Shown here in pieces: positions 11,671 to 57,232 of a stretch of 64,000 nucleotides of DNA. A model generated the notes under the pieces. That model ran no database searches, was not told where the DNA came from, and saw nothing but the letters and a program-made list of their open reading frames with translations. Location of the stretch: the IMG/VR virus record IMGVR_UViG_3300030330_005983, positions 38,199-102,198 of that record, one strand, 5' to 3'. The DNA is from a virus (taxonomy: Duplodnaviria; Caudoviricetes). How positions within the stretch are numbered: the stretch's first letter is position 1; each line of letters opens with the position of its first letter. A program made the translations under genes and the position numbers.

Positions 11671-12031
11671 AGCGCAAAGATTTTGCGACATATTTCCAGA
11701 AGCCGGTGGACAAACAATGGTGTCTAGGATAAGAACCCCTGGTCATGTTGTGGCTTGGCACAGGCACAAAATACAGCACGACTATTGGTGTTGCTTGCAA
11801 GGTTCTTTTAAGGTTGGTCTCGCAAAAGAAAACGGAGACTTTGAATTCGTATATCTCTCTGACAAGCAGCCGAGAACCATACATATACCTCCGGGGATAT
11901 ATCATGGATATATGGCGCTAGAACCAAATTCTATTTTATTGTATTACATGGACCAAGCATACGACCCATCAGACGAATATAGGGCTGAGGTAGGTTATTT
12001 CGGTGATGATTGGGGAATACCAAATAAATGA
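11648..12031 (+). CDS. RmlC-like cupin (dTDP-4-keto-sugar 3,5-epimerase)
   Basis: FHEDDR, AWHRH, IPPGIYHGY. Confidence 0.75.
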   Translation: MRFHEDDRAQRFCDIFPEAGGQTMVSRIRTPGHVVAWHRHKIQHDYWCCLQGSFKVGLAKENGDFEFVYLSDKQPRTIHIPPGIYHGYMALEPNSILLYYMDQAYDPSDEYRAEVGYFGDDWGIPNK

Positions 12032-13053: not shown

Positions 13054-13964
13054 AAATAATGACAACGGGAGGCAGGGGTTTTATTGGGAGCCACTTTGTT
13101 GAAAAGATTCTTGGGATGAACAATGTTTCTTCGGTAATAGACTATGACTGCATGACTTATGCGGCAAGCAAGTCCCTTCCATTTGACAGCAATCCTAAGT
13201 ATGAACACGTAAATGAAAATATACAAGACATACAAAGGCTTCCTCCGAATATAGATTATATCGTTAATTTTGCTGCAGAAAGTCATGTAGATAATTCTAT
13301 AGCCTCTCCATCAATTTTTATAGAGAGTAATGTTTTAGGTGTTTATAATTTGCTGGAGCTTATACGAGGAAAAGTTTATTCAAGGCCTCAGCTTATACAT
13401 ATTAGCACAGATGAGGTTTATGGAGACGCAGACGACGGAGACAATCATTTTGACGAAAACCACAAGCTAACTCCCAGCAACCCATATGCTGGCTCAAAGG
13501 CTGCGGCAGAAATGATGATTATGTCCTATGGCAGAACTTTTGGGATAGACTATAAGATAACAAGAAGCACAAATAATTATGGGCCAAGGCAGTATCCAGA
13601 AAAGCTAATACCAAAGTGTATAGATTCAATCAGCTCCGGTAAAAAAATACCTTTGCATGGAGATGGCAGCTATGTTAGAGACTGGATTCATGTTAGGGAT
13701 AACGTAGACGGAATATGGTATGTTATCGAATACGGAGAAAACAGAAACGTATACAATATAAGTGGCGACAACCCTTTGTCTAATATCGAGGTTGTTAAGA
13801 AAGTTTGTTCTTGGTTTGGAATAGAGGACTACGAAAGCCATGTTGAATTTGTGGAGAATAGGCTAGGTCAAGATGCAAGATATTCAATCAATAGCGTAAA
13901 AGCAGAGAACTTGGGATGGTCAAGAAAGTTTGGAAAGGGATTAACTAACTATGTTAAACATTAA
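13050..13964 (+). CDS. rmlB: dTDP-glucose 4,6-dehydratase
   Basis: TGGRGFIG, NFAAESHVD, HISTDEVYG, YAGSK, NNYGPRQYPEKLIP, RDWIHV. Confidence 0.92.
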   Translation: MKIMTTGGRGFIGSHFVEKILGMNNVSSVIDYDCMTYAASKSLPFDSNPKYEHVNENIQDIQRLPPNIDYIVNFAAESHVDNSIASPSIFIESNVLGVYNLLELIRGKVYSRPQLIHISTDEVYGDADDGDNHFDENHKLTPSNPYAGSKAAAEMMIMSYGRTFGIDYKITRSTNNYGPRQYPEKLIPKCIDSISSGKKIPLHGDGSYVRDWIHVRDNVDGIWYVIEYGENRNVYNISGDNPLSNIEVVKKVCSWFGIEDYESHVEFVENRLGQDARYSINSVKAENLGWSRKFGKGLTNYVKH

Positions 13965-14334
13965 TAAAGACGAAAGAGGAAATCTAATATCAATTAACGA
14001 CTTAATTACAAGCGTCCCCTTTACTGTAAAGAGATTTATGGATATAAGCAATGTGCCAAATGGTCAGACTAGGGGTTATCACGCACACAAAACCAATAAA
14101 CAATTTCTTTTGTGCTTTAGTGGCCGGGTTGTGGTTAGAACCGTAGCTAAAGATGAACAGGGTGTTCTTGTAGATGAGTCTCATGAATTAAATGAGGGTG
14201 ATTTTTTATACATGCCAGAAATGACATGGGGGGAACAAACATATTACGATAATGCCGTCTTGCATGTTCTGTGTTCAAAAAAATATGACGAGGAAGATTA
14301 TGTTAGAGACTACAACGAATTTAAAAAGCTTTAG
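13951..14334 (+). CDS. FdtA/QdtA (WxcM-like) sugar 3,4-ketoisomerase cupin
   Basis: DERGNL, VPFTVKR, RGYHAH, YDEEDYVRDY. Confidence 0.85.
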   Translation: MLNINKDERGNLISINDLITSVPFTVKRFMDISNVPNGQTRGYHAHKTNKQFLLCFSGRVVVRTVAKDEQGVLVDESHELNEGDFLYMPEMTWGEQTYYDNAVLHVLCSKKYDEEDYVRDYNEFKKL

Positions 14335-14785
14335 TGTGCTTGTTTCTGACACTGGGGCTAGTCAGCTTTCCTTTTGTGTAATAAGCGAAATAAACAATCT
14401 GCCAGCTATTTGCCCAAACATAGACGGAATAGTGTTTTATGAAAACAAACATAAAAACTGTTTACCGGCAAATTTTTCTGTCATGCACATATCGTCTGCA
14501 TGGGGAATGTCTGGTCCGGTGATTGCCACCTCTTTTTCTACGGCCTATAAGCTTTTAAATTTTCCTTCAAGCAAAAAATTCTTCTATGTGTGGAATTTAG
14601 AGTGGATTACTGGAAATGATATAAAGCAGTACGAGAGATATAAAAAGGTATATCAAGACACATCCTTGAGTCTTATTGCCAGAAGCGAACCTCATAAAAA
14701 AATAATAGAAAATGCATTTAACAGAGATGTTGAGCATGTCGTTTCAGACTTTAATATGTCAGAAATTTTGGAGATTATAAAATGA
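14300..14785 (+). CDS. Hypothetical protein, possibly resembling a GT-B N-terminal domain
   Basis: SD-like GAGG before the ATG at 14300. IATS...FFYVWNLEW...LIARS pattern. Overlaps both neighbours. Confidence 0.45.
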   Translation: MLETTTNLKSFSVLVSDTGASQLSFCVISEINNLPAICPNIDGIVFYENKHKNCLPANFSVMHISSAWGMSGPVIATSFSTAYKLLNFPSSKKFFYVWNLEWITGNDIKQYERYKKVYQDTSLSLIARSEPHKKIIENAFNRDVEHVVSDFNMSEILEIIK

Positions 14786-15561
14786 AAAAGCTCGAAGACA
14801 AGAACTGGTGCCATACCCAATACTGGGATAAAGAAAGAAGCATTGGTGATATAGCAAAAGAACTTGATACATATCCAAATAAGGTTAGAAGGGCGCTAAA
14901 ATCGCATGGGATTAAACTTAGGGATAAGGGGTCTGCGCAGGCGGTGGCTTTAAAAAAGGGCCGCAGCAGCCATCCTACGAAAGATAAGGGGCATTCTGAG
15001 GAGTCTAAGCTAAAGATATCTGAGTCTGTGGCTCAAAACTGGGAAAACTTGTCATATGAGGAGCTTGAGGCAAGGAGGGAGACGGCTAGAGAACAGTGGC
15101 GAAATATGTCGGAAGAAGATAAAATTAAGCTTAGAGAATCTGCTGTTCCAGGGATAAAAAGGGCTTCCACTGAGGGTTCTAAGCTTGAAAAATACATACA
15201 AAATCAATTGACAAAATCTGGTTATGTGATAGAATATCATAAGAAGGGGATTGTACCGAACGCCAATCTAGAGGTGGATATATATCTCCCAGAGCTTGGC
15301 ACGGCGATAGAAATCGATGGTCCTTCGCACTTTTTACCAATTTGGGGACAAGAGGCCTTAAATAAAACGATAAAGTCAGACAATGAAAAAAATGGACTTT
15401 TAAGATATCATGGAATTATGGTGATAAGAGTTTCTCAGAAGAGAAAAACTTTGTCTCAAAAATCCATGAGAGATACATGGTCCGCAATAGAAAAAGAAAT
15501 TAAAGATATATCTATAAAAATGCCAGCTAAAAATAAAAGATTTAAAGAAATAGAGGTTTGA
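14782..15561 (+). CDS. Homing-endonuclease-like protein: HTH + NUMOD3 + Vsr/DUF559-type nuclease
   Basis: SIGDIAKEL..V (HTH), HSEESKLKISE (NUMOD3), EVDIYLPELGTAIEIDGPSH (PD-(D/E)xK/Vsr-like). Confidence 0.75.
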   Translation: MKKLEDKNWCHTQYWDKERSIGDIAKELDTYPNKVRRALKSHGIKLRDKGSAQAVALKKGRSSHPTKDKGHSEESKLKISESVAQNWENLSYEELEARRETAREQWRNMSEEDKIKLRESAVPGIKRASTEGSKLEKYIQNQLTKSGYVIEYHKKGIVPNANLEVDIYLPELGTAIEIDGPSHFLPIWGQEALNKTIKSDNEKNGLLRYHGIMVIRVSQKRKTLSQKSMRDTWSAIEKEIKDISIKMPAKNKRFKEIEV

Positions 15562-15565
15562 TTTT

Positions 15566-16510
15566 ATGATGACTAAACACGGATACGAAGACGTAAGCGT
15601 TAAAGATATTAGAGAAGAGCTTATTTCTCTGGGCGTGGAGGACCAAGAGATTTTATCTCAAAGCAAAAAGCCTCTTGTTCAGCTATTGATTGAAACTAAA
15701 GAGAAAAAAGCAAATGAATTGTTTGAATTTGATAGCGAAGAGGAAGATATTTTATCTGCTGTAGACACTGACGCCCTATCTAGCTCTTTAGAGCTTGTTC
15801 AGCCTTCTTTTAATACTGAAAAATGGTCTGAGTGGGTTATGTCTCAGTTTGCGGACGATGAGCTAGAAAATGGGGCTCCGACTTGTGATGGTCTTCGTAG
15901 GGTTGCAGAAGATGTGATTGGGCCGATAGCTAAAGTAGAGGTTATAAAAAATGATACTCCAACCGTGTCAAATAAAGGGAACGCGACAGTCGTTGTTGGA
16001 GTGACAATTGAGCCTGTGTTGCTGGACAGTCACCCAAGGCATGGGTCTTATATATATGTTGAAGACTTGGCTGATGCAAATAGATTAAATACTCCGGAAG
16101 AAATATTTAAGCACCCTTCCGCAACTGCTGGAACTAGAGCAGAGTCAAGAGTTTACAGAAAGATGCTTAGACTAAGAAAGGTTCTGACAGCAGAGGAGTT
16201 GGCTTCTAATGAAAGCACGTTGGAGGAAGAATGGTCTCCGTCTACTCCTATTACAGAGCAGCAAATAACTGTCATAGAGATGTTATGCAAGAGAACAAAT
16301 CTAAATGTTTTAGAATTTATAAATTGCGGAGATTTGAAATATGTTTGCATAGAGCAGGTTTCTGAACAGTCTGCGCAAAAGATGCTTCAGCATTTAAATA
16401 GAATACAAAGAAAAGATGCTCCTAGACCAGATGGGGTTGGGGTGTATGATGAAAACTGGAAGGTTAAAAACGATGACACAAGAGAAGAAAATTTTAGCAA
16501 AAGAGTATAG
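15566..16510 (+). CDS. Putative Rad52/Sak-like single-strand annealing protein
   Basis: A beta-rich core followed by HPSATAGTRAESRVYRKML (A.TRA..R..R signature). C-terminal ITEQQ...SAQKML helical domain. Sits next to an SSB-like gene. Confidence 0.5.
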   Translation: MMTKHGYEDVSVKDIREELISLGVEDQEILSQSKKPLVQLLIETKEKKANELFEFDSEEEDILSAVDTDALSSSLELVQPSFNTEKWSEWVMSQFADDELENGAPTCDGLRRVAEDVIGPIAKVEVIKNDTPTVSNKGNATVVVGVTIEPVLLDSHPRHGSYIYVEDLADANRLNTPEEIFKHPSATAGTRAESRVYRKMLRLRKVLTAEELASNESTLEEEWSPSTPITEQQITVIEMLCKRTNLNVLEFINCGDLKYVCIEQVSEQSAQKMLQHLNRIQRKDAPRPDGVGVYDENWKVKNDDTREENFSKRV

Positions 16511-17021
16511 GATATATAAGCCTAACTCAAAAGGCACCGGCGCTGCATCTAAGTTTCAGTGCAGGACTAAATGGAAAACCATAGATAAATCAGATTACGC
16601 TGACCTCATATTATTTCTAGAGTCTGCTCAGCAGACTGGTTTTGACTCTAATAAAAACGCTTCATTCGGATGGTCGTCGACCAATGATAAGAATAAAGGA
16701 AAGTCAGTTACGATGAAGTTAGGTCTTCCTGATATAGGTGAGATTTTATTAGTTTTAAAGGGAAGGAAAACTTTTGTAGGACCAGAACCAAAACAGGGAA
16801 GAAAAATAGAGCCCGGATTATACCATCAAAACAATCATGGGAACACAAGTCTTAGGCTGAAATGGAGCGAAGGAAAGCTGTATTTAAATATATCATCTCA
16901 AGACAAAAATAAAAATGTAACAAAAATTTCACACAGCATCACTACAGCAGAGGCGGCTGTGCTTGAGTCTCTTTTGGAGCATTTTATAGTTGAGTACCAT
17001 GGTTGGAAAAATCAAATATAA
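16473..17021 (+). CDS. Whirly-like ssDNA-binding protein
   Basis: Colinear by eye with the plant Whirly domain: YRIYK..KGTGAA, ASFGW, LGLPDIGEIL, LYH, ITTAEAAVL...HGW. SD-like GGAAGG before the ATG at 16473. Confidence 0.6.
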   Translation: MTQEKKILAKEYRIYKPNSKGTGAASKFQCRTKWKTIDKSDYADLILFLESAQQTGFDSNKNASFGWSSTNDKNKGKSVTMKLGLPDIGEILLVLKGRKTFVGPEPKQGRKIEPGLYHQNNHGNTSLRLKWSEGKLYLNISSQDKNKNVTKISHSITTAEAAVLESLLEHFIVEYHGWKNQI

Positions 17022-30112: not shown

Positions 30113-33100
30113 TTACGCTGGAGTATCAACTTTTTCCGCTATTCTTGTCAGTTCCCTTTGTATTTCTTCAATAGTAGCGGATTTAACCGGTCCTTCCAGA
30201 CTATCTAGTCCCGTCACATTTACTTGAACAGCATCAAGTCCGCTTATTTGCATTTGTATGCCATCGCCAAAGCTTGTTGTAAAATTATTCAAAGAATCAG
30301 TAAGAGCTGTAATTTTTTCTGATGAAGAAAAATTCGACAAAGCATTTGTTAAAGAAGATATAGACGAACCGTCCCCGCCATCTGCCTGCTGCTTGCTCTC
30401 AAAAACTGCAACTAAACGCTCAACTCCACTTGCTGTTCTTTCTGCAACGCCTATAGCTTGAGTTGATTCCTGTGGTGCGGCAACCTGAAACGGAGCATCA
30501 ATCCCTGGGCTAATTGCTGTAGAGCTTGTTGCTCCTCCAAGACGTATCCCCGCTCCGGGAATTCCGTTATATATATTCGTGCTAGCCAAATCTACTGGTG
30601 GAATCGGATTGGGCTTGTCCGGCGTAGATGTGGTTGGAATTTTTTGTGTTTGAACGTTTTGTTTTTGTGTTTCTAACCTGCCTTCTCTATCTGTCAGCCC
30701 TTTAAGTTTTGCATTGACAGAATCCAGTCGAGATTCAAAAACGTCCCAGCCATCAGTCTTTTTTAACCCTTCATTAAGAGACCTAGCCTTTTGTTCTATG
30801 TCTGAAATATCAATATCGCCTCTTATTATGCTATTTTGTAAGCCTCTGTCGATATTAGCCTCGTCAAGTCTTTGACGCTCATCTAATATTCTTGTGCCTG
30901 CAGCGTCTTTTGCTCCACTAAAAATTGATTCAAATGCGGGTGCCATTTTCCCTATCATGTCCGACACATCGCCAAAATCTGTGTCAAAATAATCAGCATC
31001 AAAGTCAGTCAGGCTGTTAATGGCGACGGCTAATTTACTAAGCTCTTCAGGACTAAAATCAAGATTTTCCTGCTCACCAACTTGCTTAAATACTCTTTGT
31101 GATATTCTTGCTCGCTCATCCCTTCCGGCAATATTGTCTTCAACAGCAATGTTGCTAGCGTTTATTTCTTGGAAAATTTGACTGAGAGCCCTTCGCATTG
31201 GGCTGTTTATTGCGGCATCCATTTCCGCTCTAGTTGAGTTCGACAATCCCGGAACATCTGAACCAACACCGTGGCTTCGCGAGCGAATTTTTTTAGCCTC
31301 TGCTCCCCCAAATCCAGCACTCGTAATTCTATCAAGCCTGTGTAACTCTTTTGCCGACCTTCTAATTTCGTCAAAGCTAGAGGCGGCGCCTACAACTGCC
31401 TCTGCTTCCTTTCTGCCTCCAATTCCCATAGACGCAAGTTGGCCTCTTGTCGTTATTTTGTCTTGAGCCCGAACCTGTTCTTTTTGTGCGGTCTCTTTCT
31501 CTGCTTGTACTCGCTCTTGAGCTTGCGCGACTATGGCTTCCCTAATTGACCTTGTTCCTTCTACTATTGCGTTTTTAACTTCAACGTCTGTTGTCTCAAT
31601 CGTCTTCTCAAAAACCTCTTTTATTTTTTCTGCGGCTTGCCTCTGAACATTCATAGCCTCAAGTATCTTTTTCTCAAGTTCTTTCTCCCCCTTGCCTTTT
31701 TCCATACGTTTTTCCACTAAAACATCAATTTGTTTATCAGTTAACTTAGCCGCTGCGCTATTAGGAGGCGCCGCTCGAAGTTCTGCTTTTATCTGTTTCT
31801 TAGTTTGACGTTTTATAATTTCGTCAGCGTCAACCATAATTTTTTTCCCATCTCCTTGCTCCGCCTCCTTCTCAAAATCTCTGACTTTTATTCCAGCCCC
31901 CGCAAATTCTCTAAGTTGTGCCAGTCCACCTTGCATCATCTGCTCACCCTGAGGACCAAGTCTGGCTATCTCTTGAGGAAGCATGCCTCTTTGAAGCAGG
32001 TTAGCCCCTCTCATGCCTGTTGCAAAGTTTTGTCTTTGCTCTTTAGTTCCAAAAGCAATGTCTGTCAGCTTTGATTGAGTATACTCTCTTCTTTTTTGCT
32101 CTTCTCCTAGTTGCTTTTGTAAAACCGAAAGTGTTGTAGTTGATTCAGCAAGATTCGAGAGGCCAGCTCTAAGCCTTTGACCCTCTTGGCCTAGAGTATT
32201 CAGGCTATTAGTTGCGGCAAGATGTGCGGAGCTTCCAACTTCTAACTCTTTTATATATTCTCTTTGAGCTGCAATCTGTGCTTCATTTGCTTGAATTAAA
32301 TCACCAAGCTCTTGGGGGTCCATTGGATTATTAAGATTTGCACCATAACCCAAGAAATCCGTTCCAATAATAGCTCGTTGCTCTTCTTCAAATCTTCTCG
32401 CTGCTTCCTGTCGAGCTTCCTGGTCTGTTCTTGCGGCTACTGCATTTCCCGCTACATCTCTACCAAACTGTTGTTCAGCGTCATCCAATTGGTTTTGCTT
32501 CTGAAGTAATCGCTGCCTAGCTTGAGTGTAGGCCTCTTCAAGGTCATTTCTTTTCTGTAGCATAGAAAGAAGATTCTCTTGAGACTGAACTATTGCGTCA
32601 CCTATTTCTTGCAATGCTTGCAAAACCTGCGGCCCAACATCACCTCTTATTTTTTCAGCAACAGCTCTAGAATCGCCTATAATTTCATCTCTTGCAGTTC
32701 CCTCTCCTTTTTGACGGCCTGTTGTCATTGTTCCTACAGCAGTAACAACCGAATTAGCAATGGTTCCGGTAAAACCCTTTGATTGTAAAGATTTTTTAAC
32801 TGCATCAACCAACTTAATATCGCTGTCCATTCCTGGGCCAACTGCCTTTGCGGCATCAAATAATACTCCTGGTAATTCTTGAGCAAGCCGGGCTTGTTGT
32901 GCTGCCTGTTGTCTTACATTTTCATCACTACTTGCCTGTCTTATTGCCTGTGAAAGCATGGCGGGGTCAACTCTTTCTCCCTCAGCCGCTCTTCCTAATA
33001 TGTTGCCAGATTGTCTCGTGCCTCCAAAAGTTGCAGAAATATCTCCTCCTAACGCAGCATTAACTATTCCGCTTACCCTGTCTGCAAATTCAGACGTTAT

Positions 33101-36100
33101 GTCTGCGGCCCTAAGTATAGCGTCTCTAAAAGAGTTTATTTCAGAGATAAAGTCTCTTTGTGCGGCAAACGCTTCGGCGGCAGCGGCTTGGGCTTCCCTT
33201 AGTCTTCTAGCTACATCAATCTGCCTCTTATATTCTCCCCTTAACTCCTCGTAAGGAACACCCGTCAATCTACTAAGAATCTCAATTGCTTCTCGACCCT
33301 TTCCTCCCATCATTGACTCAAAGTCTGAAATGCTCTCTGAGCCCTTTGCCATTTCTCCAGTCATTTTTTGAAGCTCTGGAACTAATCTTTTCATTTCCTG
33401 TTCCATTTTTTCCATTTGCTCAAGGTCGCCAGCACTAGCCATATTATCCATAGCTCTATTTACATCGTTAACTATACTTCCAACGACAGAGGACGTAGCT
33501 CCTTGGCGTTCCAGTTTTTTCATGTTTTTGTCTATGCTTTCTAAATGTCGAGCCTGCCTTCCCCTGTTTATTGCATCTACAACTTCTTTATTTGACCCGA
33601 AAATTCCAGCAACCAGACCGCCTATTGCTCCAACTACACTACCAATTAGCCCACCAAGAAGAGTTCCTATGACAGGTATAAAGCTTCCAATCGCTGCTCC
33701 TGCAACAGCGCCTCCAGCCATTCCTGTTCCAGTGGCGCTAATTACTTTGCCTTTTGTAAACTTTGCTTGTGCTGCGTTTTCGTCTGCAGTGTTTTTAGCT
33801 CTTTCTGCCGATTCTACGGCTTCTTTCTTTAATTTCTCTCCAAAAGACCTTATTGCTACTCCAGCAGAAGCGAGTGCGCTTACGACTGCTAGGGCGCCTG
33901 CGGAAGTTCTAGTCAAAGCTGCTCCAAAGGCTTTAACGTTGCCTCTGACTTTACCCATTCCTAAAGTATTTACGTTTCTATTGCTAAGGGCGCTAAAAGT
34001 TCTTCCAAATGACGCTCTGCTAAATCTTTTTCCGCCTGCAGCGCCAGGAAGGCCCTCAAGAAGCTTTTGCGCACCAAGGCTTTCAAAAGCAATCTTAACA
34101 GTAAGAAGAGTTCCAAGAAAACCGGTGAGTCCTGACACGAGATTTGAAAAAGTCTTGTTAGTCGTTCCAACGCTTGCGGCAAGCTGTTCTAGAATATTTG
34201 GAAGAACAATAGCCGCGGCAGTAAGCTTTTCAAACCCTCGACCAGAATCGCCTCCACTAGCCCTTCCACCGCGTCGAAATTTTTTAACTATTCCGCCAGA
34301 AGCAAAGCCTTGAGCTTGACCTTTATTTATTTTGTCTAATGCCCCATAACCAATTCTTTGAGCAGATTTTTTATTTACTACAAATTCGCCAGGAGTAAGA
34401 AGTGCGGGAACAGTATCAGAGCCAGATATTCCACCTCCCGAAGCTCTCCTTGCTACTTTCAGGCGATTTTGAATAGAGTCTTTATTGACATTGGCTATAT
34501 CCCTCCACTTTGTTCGTTTTTGGTTGTTAAATTCTCTTGTGACTTTTGTTCCTTTTAAGCCTGCCTTCATCTCCTGAAGGCTTCTTTTAACTTCTCCTGT
34601 TTTTAATTTTTCTGCGCCAGGACCAAACAGCTTGCCCCATGCGCTTCGCTGATTTTTGGTTATTTCAGGAATGTCAAACGCCGCTTTGTCACCTCCCATA
34701 GCTGTTCCCGTTAAAGCAGTTAGAACGCCTTCATAAATGAAACCCGCTACTGAGCTAATAACATTGGGGTCTGATTCAGTGGCCGCCTTAGCCGCGGCTA
34801 TATTATTATCATCTACAGAAACCCCAGCCTTTTTGAAAGTGGCATTCTTTTTTAATTTCGAAACCGCCCTTCCTACTCCACTACTAGCCCCTTTCGCCGC
34901 AGCCCTATCGATTTGTGTCCCCATAACTTCTTTCAGGTCCCCTGGAGAAGGAGCGTAGCTCATGAAAGTTTGTTTATTCATGGACCCCTGTAGTCTTGTT
35001 GCGGCGCGTTGTCTTGAAGAAAGTTTATGTTTTTTTGCGGTTGACCTTTTCCAGTAATCTATAAAAGCTGGGTTTGTAATATCGAAGCTTTTAATTCCGG
35101 GATATCTGATTGCAGTATCAGCTCCGCCTTTAGTTTTTGCCCCATCTCGTAAATGGATTCCTCCGATATGAGTTCGGGGAGTCATGTTAATTGGAAGGCC
35201 ACCAGGGAATCCTCTAAGGGGAAGTTCGTCTGCGTCTGCCTTTTTCTTTCCTCTTTTCATAGCAGCTCTGTCGTTTGCTCTTTTTTGAGCGACGGTAAGC
35301 GGCTTACTTTTTCTGGTCTGACCATAAAGAAGAGCGTGTCCATCGGGTAGGCCTCTGCCTGAAGAAATCTTACCGCCCATTGCTTTCCTGGCTTTAATAG
35401 ATTTAACGCCAGGAATTTTAGATGCAGCCAAAACATTGGCATCATCATCATCAAGAAATGTTATGTTTCCATATTGTTTTTTAAGACGGTTAAGAACTTG
35501 AGCTTTCTTTTGAGACGTATCTCCTGGTCCCGGACTTCCTCCAACACCAATAATGTCTTTTGCGGTGACCCCAATTTTACTCATAAACCCGCTAATGCCC
35601 CTCCTAGTGGAACTATCACCGGGTCTAGCTGTGACCACGAATATATCGTGTCCCCTTGACGCTCTTGTTTTTGCCATAGACGCTATTTTTGTAGCTGTTG
35701 CACTCTTGACAAAAGACTCCCCTCTTTTGCCTCTAAAATCAACGTATGGGTCTTCGGCGCCCTCTCTGACAACGGCATCGCTAACGGCTAATGTGTCGTC
35801 AAAATCAAAAGCGTAAGCGCGCTTTGATTTAGATATTCCTCGTCTTTTTTTGCCACCCCTGTTAAGTCTTTGTAAATTTTCAGCCCCATATTTTTCAACA
35901 GAGCTTTTTCTAATAACAAACTCGCCCGGCTCAAGCATAGCAGGAACGGTGTCACCAGTGCCTGTTCCAGGAACAATACCTCCAGTAGCAAATCTTCTCC
36001 TTCCGCTTCTTCCGCCCATCGCTCCTGAAGATATAATTTTTTGGTTGGATGAAGATAGACGGTTAATTGGTGGTATTAAAGAGTTTACCGCTGCTGTAAG

Positions 36101-37660
36101 TTTTGTGATAGCTGTTGTATTAGTTGTTAGGGCTTGCACTTGTTTTGCTGCTGACGCAGCTTGCGCTTGTCCAGTTAACTGTCCTGCGGCCCCTCTCCCG
36201 GCACCTCTAGCTCCTCCTCCACCAAGACCGCCCGCGAAACCACTAACAAATTGAGAGCCAAGTTGAAAAGTTTTGAAAGCGGCCAAACCAGCAATTAAGG
36301 GAAGAACGGGCTTTATAGCATCTCCAACCTTAATCATTGCTGAGGCGATAGACAGAGCTGTTTTGGCAAAAGCTTGAAATGCAGTGGTCCCAGCTATCTC
36401 TCTAAAAAGGGCTAAAAATTGTTCCCTAACTTTTACAGCCTGTACAGCCAAACTCTGTTGAGCTGTTACTGCGTCTTTAGCTAAGGAGCCTTGCCCAGCT
36501 ATAGCAACATTTAATGCTCTTTGTGCTGTTCCAAATTGTTGAATTAATGGGATTACTTTTGAAACCTGCCTAAATCCACCAAGCTCTTCAATGATTTGCT
36601 GGAATCTAGGGTCTGTGGTTTCAAGAGTGCTTAATGCTTTGTTTAGTCTTTTAATAGCTTCAAAAGGACCAACGAAGTTTCCTTGAAGGTTTTGAAGCTC
36701 AACTCCAGCCTGTCGCAAGAATTCGATTGTTTTTGGTCTTTGGATTCTTGTGAAGATGGTTCTAAAACCAGTTGCAATTGTTTCCGCACTTTCACGGGTT
36801 GTTGCTCTAACGCTAGTAAACAGAGCGAGAAGCTCTTCTAGATTGCCTCCAGCAGCTTGAAACGCACCACCAGCTCTTCTAATAGCAAAAATCAAGTCTT
36901 GAGATTCTACAGCGAACTGCCCAGCAAGCGCATTTATTGAACCTAGCTTTCCTCCTAGCTGGTCTGCGGTAACGCCAAACTGACGCATGATAGCAATGGC
37001 ACCCTCAGCGGTATTTGCCATGTCTTTAAAGGTAGGCGCTAAAGAACTCTGCGCTAGTGTTTTCAGGGCTGTTGTAACGTCTTTGGCAGCCAAGCCTGTT
37101 TGCGCCAACGTTCTAGAAACATCTATTAACTCAGATGAAGCAACGCCCATGCCAGAGGCAAGTCTGCTGATTTCCTTTTCTAGGAAACCTAAAGATTGTA
37201 AGGTCTTGCCAGTAACCTGAGCAACCTTTACCATTTGCCTTTCAAAGTTTATCGCTTCAGAAACACCAGTTTTTAAAGCTGATGTGAAACTAATTAGAAC
37301 TCCACCACCAATACTAAATGCGGCAAATCTTTTTGTGGCTAATGCAATCTGGTGACCAAAGTTTTGAGCTGACGTTCCAGCCTCTTTTAAAGACGAAGAG
37401 GTTTTGTTGACATTGCTTGATGTTTTAGAGGTAGTGGAATTAAGTTGAGAAAGCGTCTTGTTTGTTTTGGCTACTTGAGCAGAAATGTTATTGAGTGATT
37501 TCTGCATGTTCTGCAAGGCCTGTAGGCCAGACTTGCTAACATTAAGATTAACATTAGCGTTGAGTCCGCCTAACTGCCTCTGCAGCCTGCTGACAACCTG
37601 CCTAACATTTCCAGGACCCTGCAGTTGAAGCTGGGCGACTATATTAAATTTTTGAGCCAT
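30113..37660 (-). CDS. Tail tape measure protein (2515 aa) with inserted globular cargo domains
   Basis: TP901-type core (FERQMVKV, LAQTG, TTRESAETIATGFRTIFTR), hydrophobic Gly/Ala segments, long coiled coils, two GG..G..DTVPA.L.PGEFV motifs and an embedded HAD domain. Confidence 0.9.
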   Translation of the reverse strand: MAQKFNIVAQLQLQGPGNVRQVVSRLQRQLGGLNANVNLNVSKSGLQALQNMQKSLNNISAQVAKTNKTLSQLNSTTSKTSSNVNKTSSSLKEAGTSAQNFGHQIALATKRFAAFSIGGGVLISFTSALKTGVSEAINFERQMVKVAQVTGKTLQSLGFLEKEISRLASGMGVASSELIDVSRTLAQTGLAAKDVTTALKTLAQSSLAPTFKDMANTAEGAIAIMRQFGVTADQLGGKLGSINALAGQFAVESQDLIFAIRRAGGAFQAAGGNLEELLALFTSVRATTRESAETIATGFRTIFTRIQRPKTIEFLRQAGVELQNLQGNFVGPFEAIKRLNKALSTLETTDPRFQQIIEELGGFRQVSKVIPLIQQFGTAQRALNVAIAGQGSLAKDAVTAQQSLAVQAVKVREQFLALFREIAGTTAFQAFAKTALSIASAMIKVGDAIKPVLPLIAGLAAFKTFQLGSQFVSGFAGGLGGGGARGAGRGAAGQLTGQAQAASAAKQVQALTTNTTAITKLTAAVNSLIPPINRLSSSNQKIISSGAMGGRSGRRRFATGGIVPGTGTGDTVPAMLEPGEFVIRKSSVEKYGAENLQRLNRGGKKRRGISKSKRAYAFDFDDTLAVSDAVVREGAEDPYVDFRGKRGESFVKSATATKIASMAKTRASRGHDIFVVTARPGDSSTRRGISGFMSKIGVTAKDIIGVGGSPGPGDTSQKKAQVLNRLKKQYGNITFLDDDDANVLAASKIPGVKSIKARKAMGGKISSGRGLPDGHALLYGQTRKSKPLTVAQKRANDRAAMKRGKKKADADELPLRGFPGGLPINMTPRTHIGGIHLRDGAKTKGGADTAIRYPGIKSFDITNPAFIDYWKRSTAKKHKLSSRQRAATRLQGSMNKQTFMSYAPSPGDLKEVMGTQIDRAAAKGASSGVGRAVSKLKKNATFKKAGVSVDDNNIAAAKAATESDPNVISSVAGFIYEGVLTALTGTAMGGDKAAFDIPEITKNQRSAWGKLFGPGAEKLKTGEVKRSLQEMKAGLKGTKVTREFNNQKRTKWRDIANVNKDSIQNRLKVARRASGGGISGSDTVPALLTPGEFVVNKKSAQRIGYGALDKINKGQAQGFASGGIVKKFRRGGRASGGDSGRGFEKLTAAAIVLPNILEQLAASVGTTNKTFSNLVSGLTGFLGTLLTVKIAFESLGAQKLLEGLPGAAGGKRFSRASFGRTFSALSNRNVNTLGMGKVRGNVKAFGAALTRTSAGALAVVSALASAGVAIRSFGEKLKKEAVESAERAKNTADENAAQAKFTKGKVISATGTGMAGGAVAGAAIGSFIPVIGTLLGGLIGSVVGAIGGLVAGIFGSNKEVVDAINRGRQARHLESIDKNMKKLERQGATSSVVGSIVNDVNRAMDNMASAGDLEQMEKMEQEMKRLVPELQKMTGEMAKGSESISDFESMMGGKGREAIEILSRLTGVPYEELRGEYKRQIDVARRLREAQAAAAEAFAAQRDFISEINSFRDAILRAADITSEFADRVSGIVNAALGGDISATFGGTRQSGNILGRAAEGERVDPAMLSQAIRQASSDENVRQQAAQQARLAQELPGVLFDAAKAVGPGMDSDIKLVDAVKKSLQSKGFTGTIANSVVTAVGTMTTGRQKGEGTARDEIIGDSRAVAEKIRGDVGPQVLQALQEIGDAIVQSQENLLSMLQKRNDLEEAYTQARQRLLQKQNQLDDAEQQFGRDVAGNAVAARTDQEARQEAARRFEEEQRAIIGTDFLGYGANLNNPMDPQELGDLIQANEAQIAAQREYIKELEVGSSAHLAATNSLNTLGQEGQRLRAGLSNLAESTTTLSVLQKQLGEEQKRREYTQSKLTDIAFGTKEQRQNFATGMRGANLLQRGMLPQEIARLGPQGEQMMQGGLAQLREFAGAGIKVRDFEKEAEQGDGKKIMVDADEIIKRQTKKQIKAELRAAPPNSAAAKLTDKQIDVLVEKRMEKGKGEKELEKKILEAMNVQRQAAEKIKEVFEKTIETTDVEVKNAIVEGTRSIREAIVAQAQERVQAEKETAQKEQVRAQDKITTRGQLASMGIGGRKEAEAVVGAASSFDEIRRSAKELHRLDRITSAGFGGAEAKKIRSRSHGVGSDVPGLSNSTRAEMDAAINSPMRRALSQIFQEINASNIAVEDNIAGRDERARISQRVFKQVGEQENLDFSPEELSKLAVAINSLTDFDADYFDTDFGDVSDMIGKMAPAFESIFSGAKDAAGTRILDERQRLDEANIDRGLQNSIIRGDIDISDIEQKARSLNEGLKKTDGWDVFESRLDSVNAKLKGLTDREGRLETQKQNVQTQKIPTTSTPDKPNPIPPVDLASTNIYNGIPGAGIRLGGATSSTAISPGIDAPFQVAAPQESTQAIGVAERTASGVERLVAVFESKQQADGGDGSSISSLTNALSNFSSSEKITALTDSLNNFTTSFGDGIQMQISGLDAVQVNVTGLDSLEGPVKSATIEEIQRELTRIAEKVDTPA

Positions 37661-45121: not shown

Positions 45122-46141
45122 CTATCCATTTGAGTCTGATTGAATTTGCCTTTTTGATTTAACAAACCTGTCGTTCAGTTCATCAACTTGAACTTGAGCG
45201 TCAATGCTATCTGTATTGTCTCTTTTCTTAAAGTTGATACCACCGCTATTAACTATAATTCCAGCTTGAGTTCTACGATTAGCGGTAATGATTTCATGTA
45301 AAACGTCATCTCCTGTAATCGCTGCTTCATCTGTGGCTTCTTCTTCGCCTCCTCCTCCTCCTCCTCCCCCTCCTCCAGAAGAGGTAAACGGAACATTATC
45401 GGTTCCCATATAGGCGTTAGGATAAAAGAAATTAGTTATTCCTGCCGCACTTGCTTGAAATTGATTATCTCCATAGGCTGGGCTACTAGTTTCAGTCAAG
45501 CCATTTGCGTTTAAAACATCCCTGTATGCCCCATTTGTATCGGCAGAACTGCCAACGTATGGCCCACCCATTGGATAATATGCTAGCATTTTTCCAGGCC
45601 GAACAAAAAGAGGAGAAGCCCCATTATAAAGACTTGTTCTTTCGCCGGCAGTAAGAACTGTGGACCATCCCGCCCACTCAGCTATCTCTCCGTCAAAATA
45701 ATAACCTGTACCTGGATTGGCGGGGAAGGCTAGTCCAATTTTAAAATCAAGGCCAGAGGTGCTGTGGTCAGAGGTTTTATTACTGGTGTTTGTTTTTACT
45801 ATGGAGTTGTCTACATAAAGATTTCTTGAGCCATATTGAAAATCAGCAACAATGTGATACCAAGTTATGCTATTGTCGGCTATAATAACGTCGGTTGTTG
45901 TTTGATAGCTGGCGTGGTAACGTAACCTCATTTTACCGTTAGTAATCATAAAAACGCCTAATCTTCCTTGGCCACTAGAGCCGTCATACTGCTCCCAAAC
46001 ACCCCCATTCTGTCTGCCGTGTGGTTTAATCCAACACGACACAGTAAAGGTATAGTTAGTATTGCTAAACGAAGAGTCATTTAAAATATTAACATTCTCT
46101 TTGCCAATACAATCATCTGTTCCGTCAAATATAATGCTCAT
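45122..46141 (-). CDS. LamG/concanavalin-like virion protein with a poly-Gly linker and small C-terminal domain
   Basis: FDGTDD, FTVSCWIK, WYHIV, LYVD, FDGEIAE. A G10 linker. The C-terminal ~55 aa are paralogous to 47792..47995. Confidence 0.75.
   Translation of the reverse strand: MSIIFDGTDDCIGKENVNILNDSSFSNTNYTFTVSCWIKPHGRQNGGVWEQYDGSSGQGRLGVFMITNGKMRLRYHASYQTTTDVIIADNSITWYHIVADFQYGSRNLYVDNSIVKTNTSNKTSDHSTSGLDFKIGLAFPANPGTGYYFDGEIAEWAGWSTVLTAGERTSLYNGASPLFVRPGKMLAYYPMGGPYVGSSADTNGAYRDVLNANGLTETSSPAYGDNQFQASAAGITNFFYPNAYMGTDNVPFTSSGGGGGGGGGGEEEATDEAAITGDDVLHEIITANRRTQAGIIVNSGGINFKKRDNTDSIDAQVQVDELNDRFVKSKRQIQSDSNG
45348..45377. repeat. (CCT)n trinucleotide run encoding the poly-Gly linker
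   Basis: cctcctcctcctcctccccctcctcc on the + strand. Confidence 0.8.
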
Positions 46142-49663: not shown

Positions 49664-50677
49664 TTACAGCGAGCCAACGATAACGCGACGGTTATCAAGC
49701 ACAGCAAAGCCGTGCTCAGCAAAGCCATAAAAACCAGCTCTACGCTGACGGTGAAGATTTTCATCTTCAAATACCTGGACGTTTTCTCTCACCGGTCGAA
49801 CGAAAGAATCATTCGTGCTGAGGTCAAGGCCAACAACAAGCTCAACATCAGAAGCCTGAAGACTTCCGCTAAGCTCGCTCTTGAAGAAGTTTTGATACTC
49901 CTGGCCAACGCCAAGCTCGTCAATATCCTGAATATTCACCGAGAAGATACGCGTGATGGCGGCAGAGCCGTCCTCTGACGTATAAATCTCTCTACGGGTA
50001 ACATCGTCAACTTGGTCAACGCCCCAGTTGCGAATATCCTCGATAGCCTCTGGCGAAACATACAAGTCGGTAAGTTTGCCACGATTAATGCTGCTGGAAT
50101 TACCACCACCATTACGTCGCATAACAGTCTTCAGAAGCGAAACAAGTCGCTTAGTGAATTGACCTGCTGCTGCATCAGCATCATAAACCAAAATATTTCG
50201 GTCAACGCCAGCGGCCAAAATCGTGTGCCAAGCGTCATCGTTTGTCTTCTTGACAAAGCTAGACTGAAGAACCTGCAAGGCTCTGCCCACGATGTCCCAG
50301 CGAGCGTCTCTGGCATATCTGAGTGTCCAGTCAATGCTAGAGGCAATCTCGAATGTTGGAACCATGACATAATCGCCTTCCACATAACGCTCGGGAATAC
50401 GACCGTGATTTGGAATACTATATGCAACAAAATCTTTTTCAGTTCCGGGTGCCAAGAAATCCAAGGGAAATTCTGGGCTAGCTCCGGGAGCCAAAGAAAT
50501 AGTCTCGTAGATACCTGCTGTGATATCTCCGCTCATAACGCCTTGACGTAGCGGCTCTTGAAGCGCAACAGCAAGCTGATGCGAAGCCTCGAGCGACTCA
50601 GCTCGATTAGCGGAACCGCTTCTTTTCAGAAGGTCGGTCATTTCTGGCGTAGGAGCGCTAATAACATTTTTATTCAT
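49664..50677 (-). CDS. Major capsid protein (HK97 fold probable)
   Basis: About 337 aa, downstream of protease-scaffold and decoration genes and followed by a strong terminator. VMVPTFEIAS and GFYGFAEHGFAVLDNR are capsid-like segments. Confidence 0.8.
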   Translation of the reverse strand: MNKNVISAPTPEMTDLLKRSGSANRAESLEASHQLAVALQEPLRQGVMSGDITAGIYETISLAPGASPEFPLDFLAPGTEKDFVAYSIPNHGRIPERYVEGDYVMVPTFEIASSIDWTLRYARDARWDIVGRALQVLQSSFVKKTNDDAWHTILAAGVDRNILVYDADAAAGQFTKRLVSLLKTVMRRNGGGNSSSINRGKLTDLYVSPEAIEDIRNWGVDQVDDVTRREIYTSEDGSAAITRIFSVNIQDIDELGVGQEYQNFFKSELSGSLQASDVELVVGLDLSTNDSFVRPVRENVQVFEDENLHRQRRAGFYGFAEHGFAVLDNRRVIVGSL

Positions 50678-50687
50678 TTTAGTTCTC

Positions 50688-51203
50688 CTATCTATTTGGG
50701 TAAGTGTTTGCATCTGCTTGTGGCAGATTTACAGAAATTTTCGCATAACCGTCTTCGTCTTTGAGGCTATCAAACTGACCAATTGCCAATCCACCTGCAT
50801 AATTCTTACGATTAATCAATGGACCACTGTTGGTATTAGTGATAAATCCGCTAGGACCAACAAAAGCAATCTGTCCCTTTGTGGGCGTGATGCCTGGGTC
50901 AATCCGGTTAGTAACAACGGTCCCCTTCTTAAGAAGGGTTACTTTGCCGCCTTTTTGCATCTCATTCTTGTGGAAATTGATGTGCTGACGAGTTTGGTCA
51001 ATGTTGACCATATCGTTAAGCAAGATACCAATGGGAACTTGCCCGGACTGAGCTGCTGCGTATGTAACTAACGCTGCTGACTGGTCAAGTGCAGCACCAG
51101 AGCCCGCCGTGCTGAGAGTAACGACACCACCTCTTTCGGCCACTTCATTCATGAAGAAGTCGATAGTGGTTTCGAACTCGTATCGGTCGCCTTTAAGTGC
51201 CAT
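50688..51203 (-). CDS. Capsid decoration/cement protein
   Basis: Between scaffold and capsid genes. PIGILLNDM, GGKVTLL..G.V.T and D.DGYAKI form a beta-tulip-like pattern. Confidence 0.65.
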   Translation of the reverse strand: MALKGDRYEFETTIDFFMNEVAERGGVVTLSTAGSGAALDQSAALVTYAAAQSGQVPIGILLNDMVNIDQTRQHINFHKNEMQKGGKVTLLKKGTVVTNRIDPGITPTKGQIAFVGPSGFITNTNSGPLINRKNYAGGLAIGQFDSLKDEDGYAKISVNLPQADANTYPNR

Positions 51204-55180: not shown

Positions 55181-57232
55181 CTATTTACGTTGCACACCAA
55201 TACCGTATATGCCTGTCATTTTTTTGACTAAATGCTCTGGGCCGGTGTATAATTGGCTGCCTGTTGGGTCTTTACCTTGCTTTGCGTAGCCCCCGACAAA
55301 ATTATGCTCTTGTCCAGATAATTGATTTTCTAAGACATGACCCACTTCATTCGCCATTAATAAAGAAGAATATCTATCTTTTCTCATTCTAGACCTTTTT
55401 CCTCCCGCTTCAATTGTTTGCGGGGTGTCCCATCTGTCTCTTCCGGTAGAGGTCTGACCATGCTCGATAGTTGCAAGCTCGTCTTTAAGAGACTCTATTT
55501 CCATAACGCAATCTTCTAAGGTATCATAATGTCTGTTCGATATTTTATCGTCTGTGATAGCTTCCGATAGCAGGATAGTATCAAATTTAGGAAACAACAA
55601 GCTTTGTGTCTCAAGGTCTTTTCTTAGATTATGGTTTGCTTTAAATGTAAACTCAGATTTTGCAAATTGAATCATGTGCAATATGTGCAAACCAGCTTCG
55701 CCGTCTGTGGGTTTATTATTTGACTCCCAGTAAAAAGGGTCTTTGTTATCGTCCTCTTTGATATATGGCCACAATGGATGCTCTCCTTCTTTTAATAAGC
55801 TCTTGTCGTGAAGGGCCTCCATTATTGCTATCCCGCCTCCTTGAGCATCTATGGCTATATTTTTTGTTGGAAATATTTTTGTTAAATCTAGTATTTTTCT
55901 TGCGCAATAATTGTAGAAGCTCTCTAGCTGAGATTCTTTTTTTGTTTTAATTCTTTCCCTCATTACCTGCCTGCTGCAAGTCCATACATAAACAATTCTT
56001 CTATGGCTCTCATTTTGTTCAAGAATTACAATTGAAAAATTGTCGTTTTCTGACGCTGGGTCTATACCGTAAATATATTTTTTATTTGGATTTCCACAAA
56101 GCATCGCGTCAAAAGAAACTTCGCTTCCGTCCTTAGTGGCGACAGGATTATTTGTTGAACATCTTTCAATTAAGCTTCTTCGAAAAAATCCTTCAGAGTC
56201 TTTTGCAAAGCACGCCTCGTACTCCATGTCATATCTTGAGCTGTGAAGCATAGCCTTTGCTTGAGCTAGCTGTGATTTATCCATAAAGCCTTCTGGCAAA
56301 ACGCCCTCTGGTAATCTCATAACAGAATAGTGAGTCCAATCAAAACCTTCTGGTATTTTACCCTTGAATACGTGCTCTTCTAAATATCTCTCGTCTCCTT
56401 TACTACGCACTATTTCTCTTTGTCTTACAAAATATTCGTAAAAATGATTAAATGCGTAGTAAGCTGTTCCAGCTATGATAGTTTGGTTTCCAAAACCAAG
56501 CTCCCCTTCTATCTCGTCTGCTTCTTCATACATGCCAAGCTCTTTAAGCTTTTGTATTTGAGCATATTCTTTTACTTTATCCGCAGGGTTGGCGGAAACA
56601 GCTCCAAAACCCTTAATAACAACTTCAAATATTTCTTGGGGTATCGAGGCAAACTCATCGGCTATAATATAGTTCGCGCGTAAACCACGAATTTTAGAAC
56701 CATCTCCAAGAGGTATAGCGATTATTTCGCTCTGGCCAACATAAAAAGTGCATCTATCTATATCTCTTTTTGGGCCTTGCCCTTTACCGGCGCCTACTAT
56801 ATTTCTGAATATAGGAGAGTTTTTATAAAAAGTTTCCATGTACTCAAACAATAACTTAGATTGTCTGAACGCCGCACCTATTACGATAACCTTACAGCCC
56901 TGCATAAAAAAAGCTCTAAGTAAAGAATACAGAGCCAAAATCCATGTTTTGCCAGCTCCGCGAGTTGCAATTAACATTGGAAATTTTCTAGTCCAAAGCT
57001 CTTGTAATATAGAAAGCTGAAAAGGTAAGAGGTCAACGTTTAATAAATACTTACAAGTAAACCAAAAGTTTTCTGGCTTACTCATGTAATCCAAAAATTC
57101 TAAAACAGTATTATCATACTGCCTTTCTGGAAGTAATAGCTTGTTTTCTATATGTATCTTATCTACATCGCCTATATTTAAATGGGCGTGTTTTAGTAAT
57201 ATCTCTGTGCGGTTTTTATCTCTTATTTTCAT
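55181..57232 (-). CDS. terL: Terminase large subunit
   Basis: Walker A ATRGAGKT, IRGLRA, Walker B YIIADE, RNase-H-like YGIDPA, IAIDAQGGG and KDRYS. No intein seen. Confidence 0.92.
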   Translation of the reverse strand: MKIRDKNRTEILLKHAHLNIGDVDKIHIENKLLLPERQYDNTVLEFLDYMSKPENFWFTCKYLLNVDLLPFQLSILQELWTRKFPMLIATRGAGKTWILALYSLLRAFFMQGCKVIVIGAAFRQSKLLFEYMETFYKNSPIFRNIVGAGKGQGPKRDIDRCTFYVGQSEIIAIPLGDGSKIRGLRANYIIADEFASIPQEIFEVVIKGFGAVSANPADKVKEYAQIQKLKELGMYEEADEIEGELGFGNQTIIAGTAYYAFNHFYEYFVRQREIVRSKGDERYLEEHVFKGKIPEGFDWTHYSVMRLPEGVLPEGFMDKSQLAQAKAMLHSSRYDMEYEACFAKDSEGFFRRSLIERCSTNNPVATKDGSEVSFDAMLCGNPNKKYIYGIDPASENDNFSIVILEQNESHRRIVYVWTCSRQVMRERIKTKKESQLESFYNYCARKILDLTKIFPTKNIAIDAQGGGIAIMEALHDKSLLKEGEHPLWPYIKEDDNKDPFYWESNNKPTDGEAGLHILHMIQFAKSEFTFKANHNLRKDLETQSLLFPKFDTILLSEAITDDKISNRHYDTLEDCVMEIESLKDELATIEHGQTSTGRDRWDTPQTIEAGGKRSRMRKDRYSSLLMANEVGHVLENQLSGQEHNFVGGYAKQGKDPTGSQLYTGPEHLVKKMTGIYGIGVQRK

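Follow-up and report, generated by a model that had tools for sequence, protein, structure and literature searches.

The analysed stretch of DNA, referred to below as the window, is the final 64 kb of a 102,198-bp IMG/VR virus record (IMGVR_UViG_3300030330_005983; CheckV completeness 43%), a metagenome-assembled viral contig of an uncultured marine phage. The gene of its tape measure protein (TMP), P0001, was found to contain a phosphatase domain of the haloacid dehalogenase (HAD) superfamily. The domain resides in a cassette at 35366..35851 on the minus strand, corresponding to aa 604-765 of the protein. The explanation that we favour, with moderate confidence, is that these residues form an in-frame cargo cassette, i.e. 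a virion-borne, Pnkp-like HAD phosphomonoesterase which leaves the tail together with the TMP.

The TMP gene (30113..37660, minus strand) is a single uninterrupted open reading frame (ORF) of 2515 codons, and its 2515-aa product is a true tape measure protein. This identity was established by the matches to the core model Pfam PF10145 PhageMin_Tail (aa 163-362, E 7.6e-24, 85.1 bits against a cut-off of 33.2), to TIGR01760 tape_meas_TP901 (aa 124-441, E 1.2e-25, 90.3 bits against a cut-off of 28.8) and to the PHROG tape-measure families, eight of which were matched at E<=1.2e-9 in addition to phrog_14441 at 1.7e-4, together with the position of the gene in the tail block. The gene is situated in a minus-strand structural block, downstream of the genes of the large terminase (55181-57298) and the major head protein (49664-50713), and it is followed on the 3' side by ORFs of 1011, 630, 598 and 1770 aa, which are large and of tail-tip size. 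The nearest cultured relatives of the TMP core were determined to be SPbeta-like Bacillus phages, with an identity of only ~25%. The Pfam scan of the 2515-aa protein resulted in no kinase domain and no peptidase domain.

The folded HAD phosphatase domain covers aa 611-760 (35381..35830, minus strand), as delimited by the AlphaFold2 (AF2) model, by the VIA-align superposition with 5uj0_B (Z 16.3 over model residues 11-160) and by Foldseek. The initial annotation of the window had placed four HAD motifs in order within the TMP at 35390-35820, i.e. at aa 615-757, and all of them were found as placed, on the minus strand: motif I AYAFDFDDTL at 35789..35818 (aa 615-624), motif II IFVVTAR at 35624..35644 (aa 673-679), motif III QKKAQ at 35498..35512 (aa 717-721) and motif IV ITFLDDD at 35444..35464 (aa 733-739). 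In motif I, D619 is the predicted nucleophile and D621 the predicted acid/base, followed by T623; motif II contributes T677 and the invariant R679, motif III K719, and motif IV D737 and D738, after which comes the invariant N742. The DFDDT segment (aa 619-623) stands directly after strand 14-18 of the AF2 model, as is typical of HAD motif I, and the S/T of motif II, the lysine of motif III and the acidic pair of motif IV are represented by T677, K719 and D737/D738, respectively.

The conservation of these residues was determined in an alignment of 54 sequences (A1), consisting of the window segment, 20 segments of longer proteins and 33 stand-alone proteins. The 21 copies in longer proteins, the window copy included, are called embedded in the following. 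D619, D621, T677, R679, K719, D737, D738 and N742 were kept in 21/21 embedded copies, and the same catalytic positions were kept in 32-33 of the 33 stand-alone proteins. D737, D738 and N742 were each present in 54/54 sequences, and D619 and D621 in 53/54 (21/21 embedded and 32/33 stand-alone). At the T623 position, T occurred in 20 embedded copies and V in one, and the single exceptions at the T677 and K719 positions were S and A, respectively. The catalytic lysine that the initial annotation had assigned to QKKAQ was borne out for the second K only, as K719 was found in 21/21 embedded copies and 32/33 stand-alone proteins and K718 is not conserved. The catalytic residues of T4 Pnkp are Asp165, Asp167, Ser211, Lys258 and Asp278, their roles being given in excerpts of PMC3592404; hhalign paired them with D619, D621, T677, K719 (within one column) and D738, respectively. 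In the same comparisons, motif I of the window was aligned with DVDGT of T4 Pnkp, and motif II with VVSGR of T4 Pnkp and VTGR of AphA.

The ratio of nonsynonymous to synonymous substitution rates (dN/dS) of the HAD segment, a rough Nei-Gojobori estimate with dS near saturation, was ~0.10 and 0.18 against two related contigs; with a third related contig, dS was saturated. With the first two contigs, the identity was 80-83% for the HAD segment and 67-68% for the N-terminal TMP core. The pattern is that of an enzyme under purifying selection, and catalysis is predicted. The embedded copies were basic, with a median isoelectric point (pI) of 9.5 and a net charge of +5, and the stand-alone proteins acidic, with a median pI of 5.4 and a net charge of -4. 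A basic insert (EREPGKRPGTTR...) between the third strand and motif III is conserved in many embedded copies (P0010-P0016, P0018, P0019); it is missing from the window copy and from the stand-alone proteins.

The identification of the domain rests on profiles and structure, because Pfam alone detected only motif I (PF00702, E 0.041, below the cut-off). With the 170-aa segment, phrog_415 'polynucleotide kinase' matched aa 611-748 at E 1.2e-6, and a weak match to phrog_1238 was obtained at E 7.5e-4. The NCBIfam search of the segment gave nothing meaningful, and the single-sequence phmmer search against the PDB only a chance kinesin match with an E of 1. No match of the segment was obtained by tblastn against 50,697 phage records or by the word-index search at near lengths. 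The full HMMER scan of 1.84 billion representatives resulted in 79 proteins at E<=1e-3, with 21 at <=1e-10 and 7 at <=1e-30. Twenty of these 79 are proteins of 1469-4308 residues, and most of them share the N-terminal core of the window TMP according to local phmmer, being homologous TMPs. The other matches are for the most part stand-alone proteins (102-256 residues) that have the same motifs; their Pfam matches, to Acid_phosphat_B, HAD_PNKP, DUF2608, NIF and Hydrolase, are scattered and sub-threshold. By tblastn against the phage records, the stand-alone P0024 matched one unannotated uncultured phage and P0021 none. When the profile from A1 was searched against PDB sequences, almost only HAD proteins were retrieved, with AphA first (E 9e-4, full-length alignment) and Pnkp1 at E 0.03.

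The AF2 model calculated on A1 had a mean predicted local distance difference test score (pLDDT) of 91.4, a predicted TM-score (pTM) of 0.84 and a five-stranded alpha/beta core. The fold check that the initial annotation had proposed, by profiles and Foldseek against PNKP, resulted in a predicted HAD fold. Foldseek against the PDB placed AphA, T4 Pnkp and Pnkp1 first, with E-values of 5e-6 to 3e-5 and AphA the best of the three; 61 PDB chains were matched at E<=1e-3, and all among those listed were HAD-type. VIA-align gave Z>=8 for 471 of 1000 chains. Its best match was the T4 Pnkp 3'-phosphatase 5uj0, with a Z of 16.3, a root-mean-square deviation of 2.5 Å and 134/142 residues aligned (1ltq had Z 15.4), followed by Pnkp1 of the Pnkp1/Rnl/Hen1 complex (Z 14.6) and AphA (Z 13.4). 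The HADs other than Pnkp, Pnkp1 and AphA had a Z of 11.9 or less, e.g. 11.4 for GmhB and 10.9 for MDP-1. Many of the matches listed among the viral predicted structures of BFVD are named phage polynucleotide kinase; the four best are unnamed. The minimal cap read by the initial annotation from the letters agrees with the alignment to nearly the whole of the cap-less T4 domain, and the T4 Pnkp 3'-phosphatase type, which it had named, is the closest solved structure.

The hhalign comparison of A1 with individual families gave a probability of 95.0% for E. coli AphA (137 columns) and 93.6% for the T4 Pnkp phosphatase domain (127 columns), both over the whole domain. The values were 39.6% for T5 Dmp (84 columns, motifs I-II only), 26.6% for Gph (20 columns), 19.5% for another E. 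coli HAD_2 protein (14 columns) and 0.5% for GmhB (18 columns). The negative control, an unrelated T5 protein, resulted in 0.14% over 8 columns. Judged by the model, the domain is a cap-less HAD with the Pnkp phosphatases as its closest structural relatives; by sequence profile, AphA is about as close.

The C-terminal 3'-phosphatase of T4 Pnkp/PseT (5uj0, 1ltq) resembles the TMP domain in being cap-less and ~145 residues long, with DxDxT, (S/T)-x-R, K and DD in register. The identity is ~17-22%, and the TMP domain is without the fused 5'-kinase. T4 Pnkp is a soluble early enzyme, whereas the present domain is embedded in a virion structural protein and its activity is predicted. Pnkp1 (PDB 4xrp, 4xru) aligned over 134 residues with Z 14.4-14.6 and 13% identity; according to the entry title it acts with a ligase and a methyltransferase, and none such was found on the phage contig. 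The class B acid phosphatase AphA (1z5g, 2b82, 1n8n) aligned over 146 residues with Z 13.4 and has the T-x-R form of motif II. However, the N-terminal extension of AphA lies outside the match, which begins at residue 34-36 of the chain, and its motif IV is GDSDND instead of the DDxxxN of the TMP domain. T5 Dmp, a deoxynucleoside-5'-monophosphatase, is likewise a small phage HAD with TAR in motif II and a feature neighbour in the ESM Atlas; in contrast to the embedded domain, it is annotated as a soluble pre-early gene product, and the hhalign similarity is restricted to motifs I-II.

These relatives allow a different assignment, in which the domain would be a nucleotidase like AphA or T5 Dmp: as infection begins, it would dephosphorylate (deoxy)nucleoside monophosphates ((d)NMPs) or some molecule derived from a nucleotide, and not nucleic-acid ends. 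This is fairly unlikely in our judgement, and the evidence divides between sequence and structure. AphA was the best match by sequence profile, both in the PDB hmmsearch and in hhalign, and by the Foldseek E-value; T5 Dmp shares the TAR form of motif II, and the ESM Atlas neighbours of the domain include viral clusters of Acid_phosphat_B and Phage_T5_dNMPase. Against this, T4 Pnkp and Pnkp1 rank 1.2 to 3 Z units above AphA structurally, the T5 Dmp alignment stops short of motifs III and IV, and the N-terminal extension of AphA is left uncovered. Two proteins matched in the HMMER scan hint at a nucleotide-related substrate and count for a nucleotidase: P0075 (318 aa), in which the HAD is fused to a NUDIX domain, and P0070 (672 aa), in which a P-loop (GSGKG) segment of ~250 residues is inserted at the cap position.

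The domain might also dephosphorylate proteins, or it might have no catalytic role and serve in structure or assembly, the phosphate/Mg2+ site being kept for stability or binding in the tail. Cap-less HADs include protein phosphatases such as MDP-1, three stand-alone relatives have weak NIF matches (E ~1e-3), and the embedded copies have a basic surface. However, the protein-phosphatase families score well below Pnkp, the full catalytic set is invariant in all the embedded copies, and the fact that 100 of the 120 listed TMP relatives do without the cassette speaks against a structural need. Such a role is therefore quite improbable.

The cassette is bounded by LNRGG (aa 599-603) and KAMGG (aa 759-763). 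It is preceded by junction motif 1 (35852..36004, minus strand, aa 553-603), which reads RRFATGG-IVPGTGTGDTVPAMLEPGEFV ... LNRGG, and is followed by a second cargo-like module, module 2 (34448..35365, minus strand, aa 766-1071). Module 2 ends at junction motif 2 (34286..34447, minus strand, aa 1072-1125), RRASGGG-ISGSDTVPALLTPGEFV, of which RRASGGG is aa 1072-1078. The consensus of the junctions is (F/R)A(T/S)GG-x-[VI]-x-G-x-G-x-x-DTVPAxLxPGEFV, and it occurs in 2-5 copies per TMP among relatives. The junction motif is not special to this TMP clade: tblastn of aa 541-610 matched 280 phage records, mostly annotated TMPs of phages of Gordonia, Mycobacterium, Burkholderia, Klebsiella and other hosts, and the motif was also detected by tblastn in a hypothetical protein of Prochlorococcus phage P-TIM68.

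The limits of the exchanged segments were determined by BLASTP against the TMPs of related contigs. The TMP of L004, a related 148-kb contig, is collinear with the window TMP over aa 1-603 (64% identity) and again from aa 1072. Between these points, 331 unrelated residues replace the 468 of the window, and no similarity was found by BLASTP between the two slot contents. The alignment with the TMP of L005 includes the whole HAD, stops at aa 765 and is taken up again at aa 1066; module 2 is exchanged independently of the HAD. The breakpoints at aa 603, 765 and 1072 coincide with LNRGG, KAMGG and RRASGGG, respectively, and it is at junction motif 2 that collinear similarity resumes in L004, L005 and many other relatives. 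Direct DNA repeats flanking the cassette were not found above the chance level.

The word-index search with aa 1-600 scored 8000 candidates, of which 2312 were TMP-length proteins with E<=1e-20. In 20 of the 120 listed TMP relatives, the query included, the HAD was present according to a local hidden Markov model (HMM) search. Its position was between the first and second DTVPAxLxPGEFV copies in 19 of these 20 HAD-bearing TMPs, and the other one has a single motif match. Among the 100 HAD-less relatives, the N-terminal match ended at aa 590-612 in 48, earlier in 35 and elsewhere in 17. The HAD is thus an optional in-frame cassette, which has a defined slot and is carried by only some members of this very large TMP family. 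In a quick maximum-likelihood tree, the root of which serves for drawing only, 18/21 embedded copies fell into one clade with an SH-aLRT of 98, and the embedded/stand-alone label changed 2 times compared with a mean of 17 after shuffling. The embedded copies appear to form essentially one lineage.

As the record is a metagenome-assembled viral contig, a separate HAD gene might have been wrongly joined to the TMP gene by chimeric assembly or faulty annotation. This is extremely improbable, considering the single uninterrupted frame of the gene, the same architecture in 19 other proteins among the 120 listed relatives, and the contigs of other studies. Metagenome contigs from runs of two other studies span both cassette junctions with 0 differences and no joints. 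A cassette-less joint was not seen among the metagenome contigs, which cannot show rare variants. The 2-kb stretch around the cassette was present nearly unchanged in 14 runs, with at least half of the sampled words, and ten of these runs may be the source sample. One contig from an RNA library covers only 34501-34697; it does not show that the region is transcribed.

Related phages have ADP-ribosyltransferase domains, other sequence or nothing at all in this slot. The Pfam scan of 15 other large homologues detected PhageMin_Tail in 13 of them. The ADP-ribosyltransferase family ADPrib_exo_Tox was found in this slot at aa 1047-1239 of P0010, directly before its HAD, and at aa 1278-1442 of P0050. 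In P0013, the slot has a cytidylyltransferase-related region (aa 1271-1318) before the HAD. ADP-ribosyltransferases need NAD+, which points to the cytoplasm, and their presence in the slot speaks against an envelope-directed phosphatase. Such an enzyme would act in the periplasm or at the membrane on sugar or lipid-linked phosphates, and would aid the TMP in crossing the envelope as muralytic TMP domains do. AphA is periplasmic, and the weak phrog_1238 match is a further point for this possibility; against it, GmhB, the cap-less sugar-phosphate HAD, reached only a negligible hhalign probability and a Z well below those of Pnkp and AphA. The TMP-embedded enzymes listed in excerpts of a 2018 review (PMC6116005) act on the cell wall, which would suit the envelope as the place of action. 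Overall, we regard an envelope target as improbable.

In the favoured explanation, that of a Pnkp-like cargo enzyme, the cassette would encode a small Mg2+-dependent phosphomonoesterase, a cap-less member of the HAD superfamily. It occupies the first of several TMP slots, between two junction copies (xxGG ... DTVPAxLxPGEFV). Because the cassette is part of the TMP, the enzyme would be incorporated during tail assembly and would leave with the TMP when the phage infects, ahead of any phage gene expression; its entry into the cell and the compartment in which it would act are likewise predicted. The favoured substrate is a nucleotide or a nucleic-acid end bearing a 3'-phosphate or 2',3'-cyclic phosphate, since substrates of this kind are used by all three of the closest solved relatives.

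Several results weigh against this explanation. Sequence profiles did not separate Pnkp from the nucleotide phosphatase AphA. The segment matched neither PF25109 HAD_PNKP nor PF03767 Acid_phosphat_B at E<=10. Among 24 relatives, the best PF25109 score was 21.4 bits (P0025), with a cut-off of 27.6, and the best PF03767 score 22.9 bits, with a cut-off of 27. As neither Pfam threshold was reached, the domain is not filed as a member of either family. AAA_33 kinase, RNA_ligase and RNA_lig_T4_1 were all missing from the 102-kb contig, which is an estimated 43% complete; as the PF09511 search moreover matched no control genome, these absences are weak evidence. End healing without a ligase would not restore cut RNA, and because no kinase or ligase partner was found, a free nucleotide is kept as a possible substrate. 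The N-terminal third of a TMP, where the cassette is located, leaves the tail last. The neighbourhoods of the stand-alone relatives (79 ORFs at 13 of 23 loci) are mostly without a family and do not fix the substrate. Among these 13 loci, a pyrimidine-dimer glycosylase gene adjoins the HAD in one and is one gene off in another, and a dCMP deaminase is encoded ~3 kb from the HAD in a third.

Until recently, to our knowledge, TMPs were known only with wall-degrading domains. A TMP that carries an enzyme of another kind has already been described: gp96 of Thermus phage P23-45 is a 5,002-aa TMP, the N-terminal part of which is a virion RNA polymerase transcribing pre-early genes, and its authors propose that the polymerase stays associated with the TMP pore (excerpts of PMC10770324). 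Both gp96 and the window TMP have a non-lytic enzyme in the N-terminal part of a giant TMP, and gp96 has been shown to act on the incoming genome. In gp96, however, the enzyme is an RNA polymerase in a fixed N-terminal fusion, present in four related Thermus phages, whereas the present case is an optional internal phosphatase cassette. The cell-wall hydrolase domains of the TMPs of mycobacteriophage TM4, T5 (pb2) and phiIPLA35, as listed in the excerpts of PMC6116005, are also catalytic, TMP-borne and used at entry; their target is peptidoglycan, unlike that of the predicted phosphomonoesterase, whose nearest relatives are nucleic-acid and nucleotide phosphatases. Sle1-type effectors of actinobacterial contractile injection systems, according to excerpts of PMC13277306, share a TMP-related scaffold, exchangeable domains and loading in a tail-like particle, but they belong to bacterial injection systems instead of phages and have other functional domains.

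Polyvalent proteins (Iyer et al. 2017, PMC5512222) are giant multidomain proteins, co-delivered with DNA, that contain several conflict enzymes and usually a processing peptidase. The window TMP has several cargo modules, and ADP-ribosyltransferase domains occur in its relatives; a peptidase domain was not detected in P0001. The terms 'tape measure' and 'phosphatase' do not occur in PMC5512222. Two phage papers that mention a tape measure protein and a haloacid dehalogenase treat them, in the passages concerned, as separate genes, and the corresponding passages of a jumbo-phage survey (PMC7824862) have HAD phosphatases only as soluble RNA-repair enzymes. The initial annotation knew of no characterised tape measure with this domain, and in agreement with it no description of a HAD or other phosphatase inside a TMP was found in the published literature, supplements not covered. 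The phosphatase is therefore the type of cargo that was not found in print, and not the carriage of an enzyme by a TMP as such.

The P23-45 polymerase showed that a TMP can deliver an enzyme acting on the incoming genome. If the favoured explanation is true, a conserved but optional Pnkp-like phosphatase that shares a swappable slot with ADP-ribosyltransferases would make this one example part of a general cargo system, found in phages that are abundant in the ocean, and would point to a counter-defence or take-over step requiring no phage gene expression. More speculatively, the large marine phage clade represented by the 2312 relatives may use the TMP as a polyvalent effector carrier, with enzymes exchanged as in-frame cassettes at Gly-Gly motifs. 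The phosphatase would then enter the cell before phage gene expression and either clear the 3'-phosphate or 2',3'-cyclic-phosphate ends left behind by nucleases of the host's defence or destroy a nucleotide substrate of defence, and the junction motifs would double as processing sites for cargo release. This wider proposal is rather unlikely. The cassette is small (~160 aa) and easily expressed, so its biochemistry is directly testable.

Module 2 has a core at aa ~880-1060 that is common to 8 relatives, with the motifs G[FY]x[FY]E, [FW]D[IFV]P and [AG]ExK(R), and many HAD-less relatives retain aa ~968-1135. Its E...D...ExK pattern recalls PD-(D/E)xK nucleases as a motif-level lead. The searches lent this assignment no support: no Pfam or PDB sequence match was obtained, the best ESM Atlas score was 0.77 with no recognition, and the single-sequence fold was unusable (pLDDT 41.7).

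After the cargo slot, the TMP has a long glycine zipper with a hydrophobic segment at aa 1313-1352 (33605..33724, minus strand), containing six overlapping GxxxGxxxG matches and two transmembrane-like windows. It is likely to be a membrane-inserting segment of the TMP. Glycine zippers of TMPs and of Tde1, an effector of the type VI secretion system, have been associated with the formation of channels and with passage across the cytoplasmic membrane (excerpts of PMC10240207).

Elsewhere in the window, a large phage-borne cluster of sugar-modification genes occupies 1-17021 (plus strand), with further members at 57677-58744 (minus strand) and 61408-62160 (plus strand). It encodes a GT29 sialyltransferase, a NeuB-type synthase fused to a TIM-barrel domain, a DHDPS-family enzyme and a CMP-sugar cytidylyltransferase, as well as two sulfotransferases, several methyltransferases, dTDP-sugar enzymes and a GDP-mannose dehydratase; judged by these families, the cluster looks like a nonulosonic-acid pathway in a phage. 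The 163-aa ORF at 57216-57707 (minus strand), which overlaps the start of the terminase gene region, has an ERCC4 nuclease domain (E 1.8e-6). In the tail block, the 339-aa ORF at 45122-46141 (minus strand) contains a concanavalin-A-like lectin domain (Laminin_G_3, E 5e-14), and its product may be a decorated tail protein.

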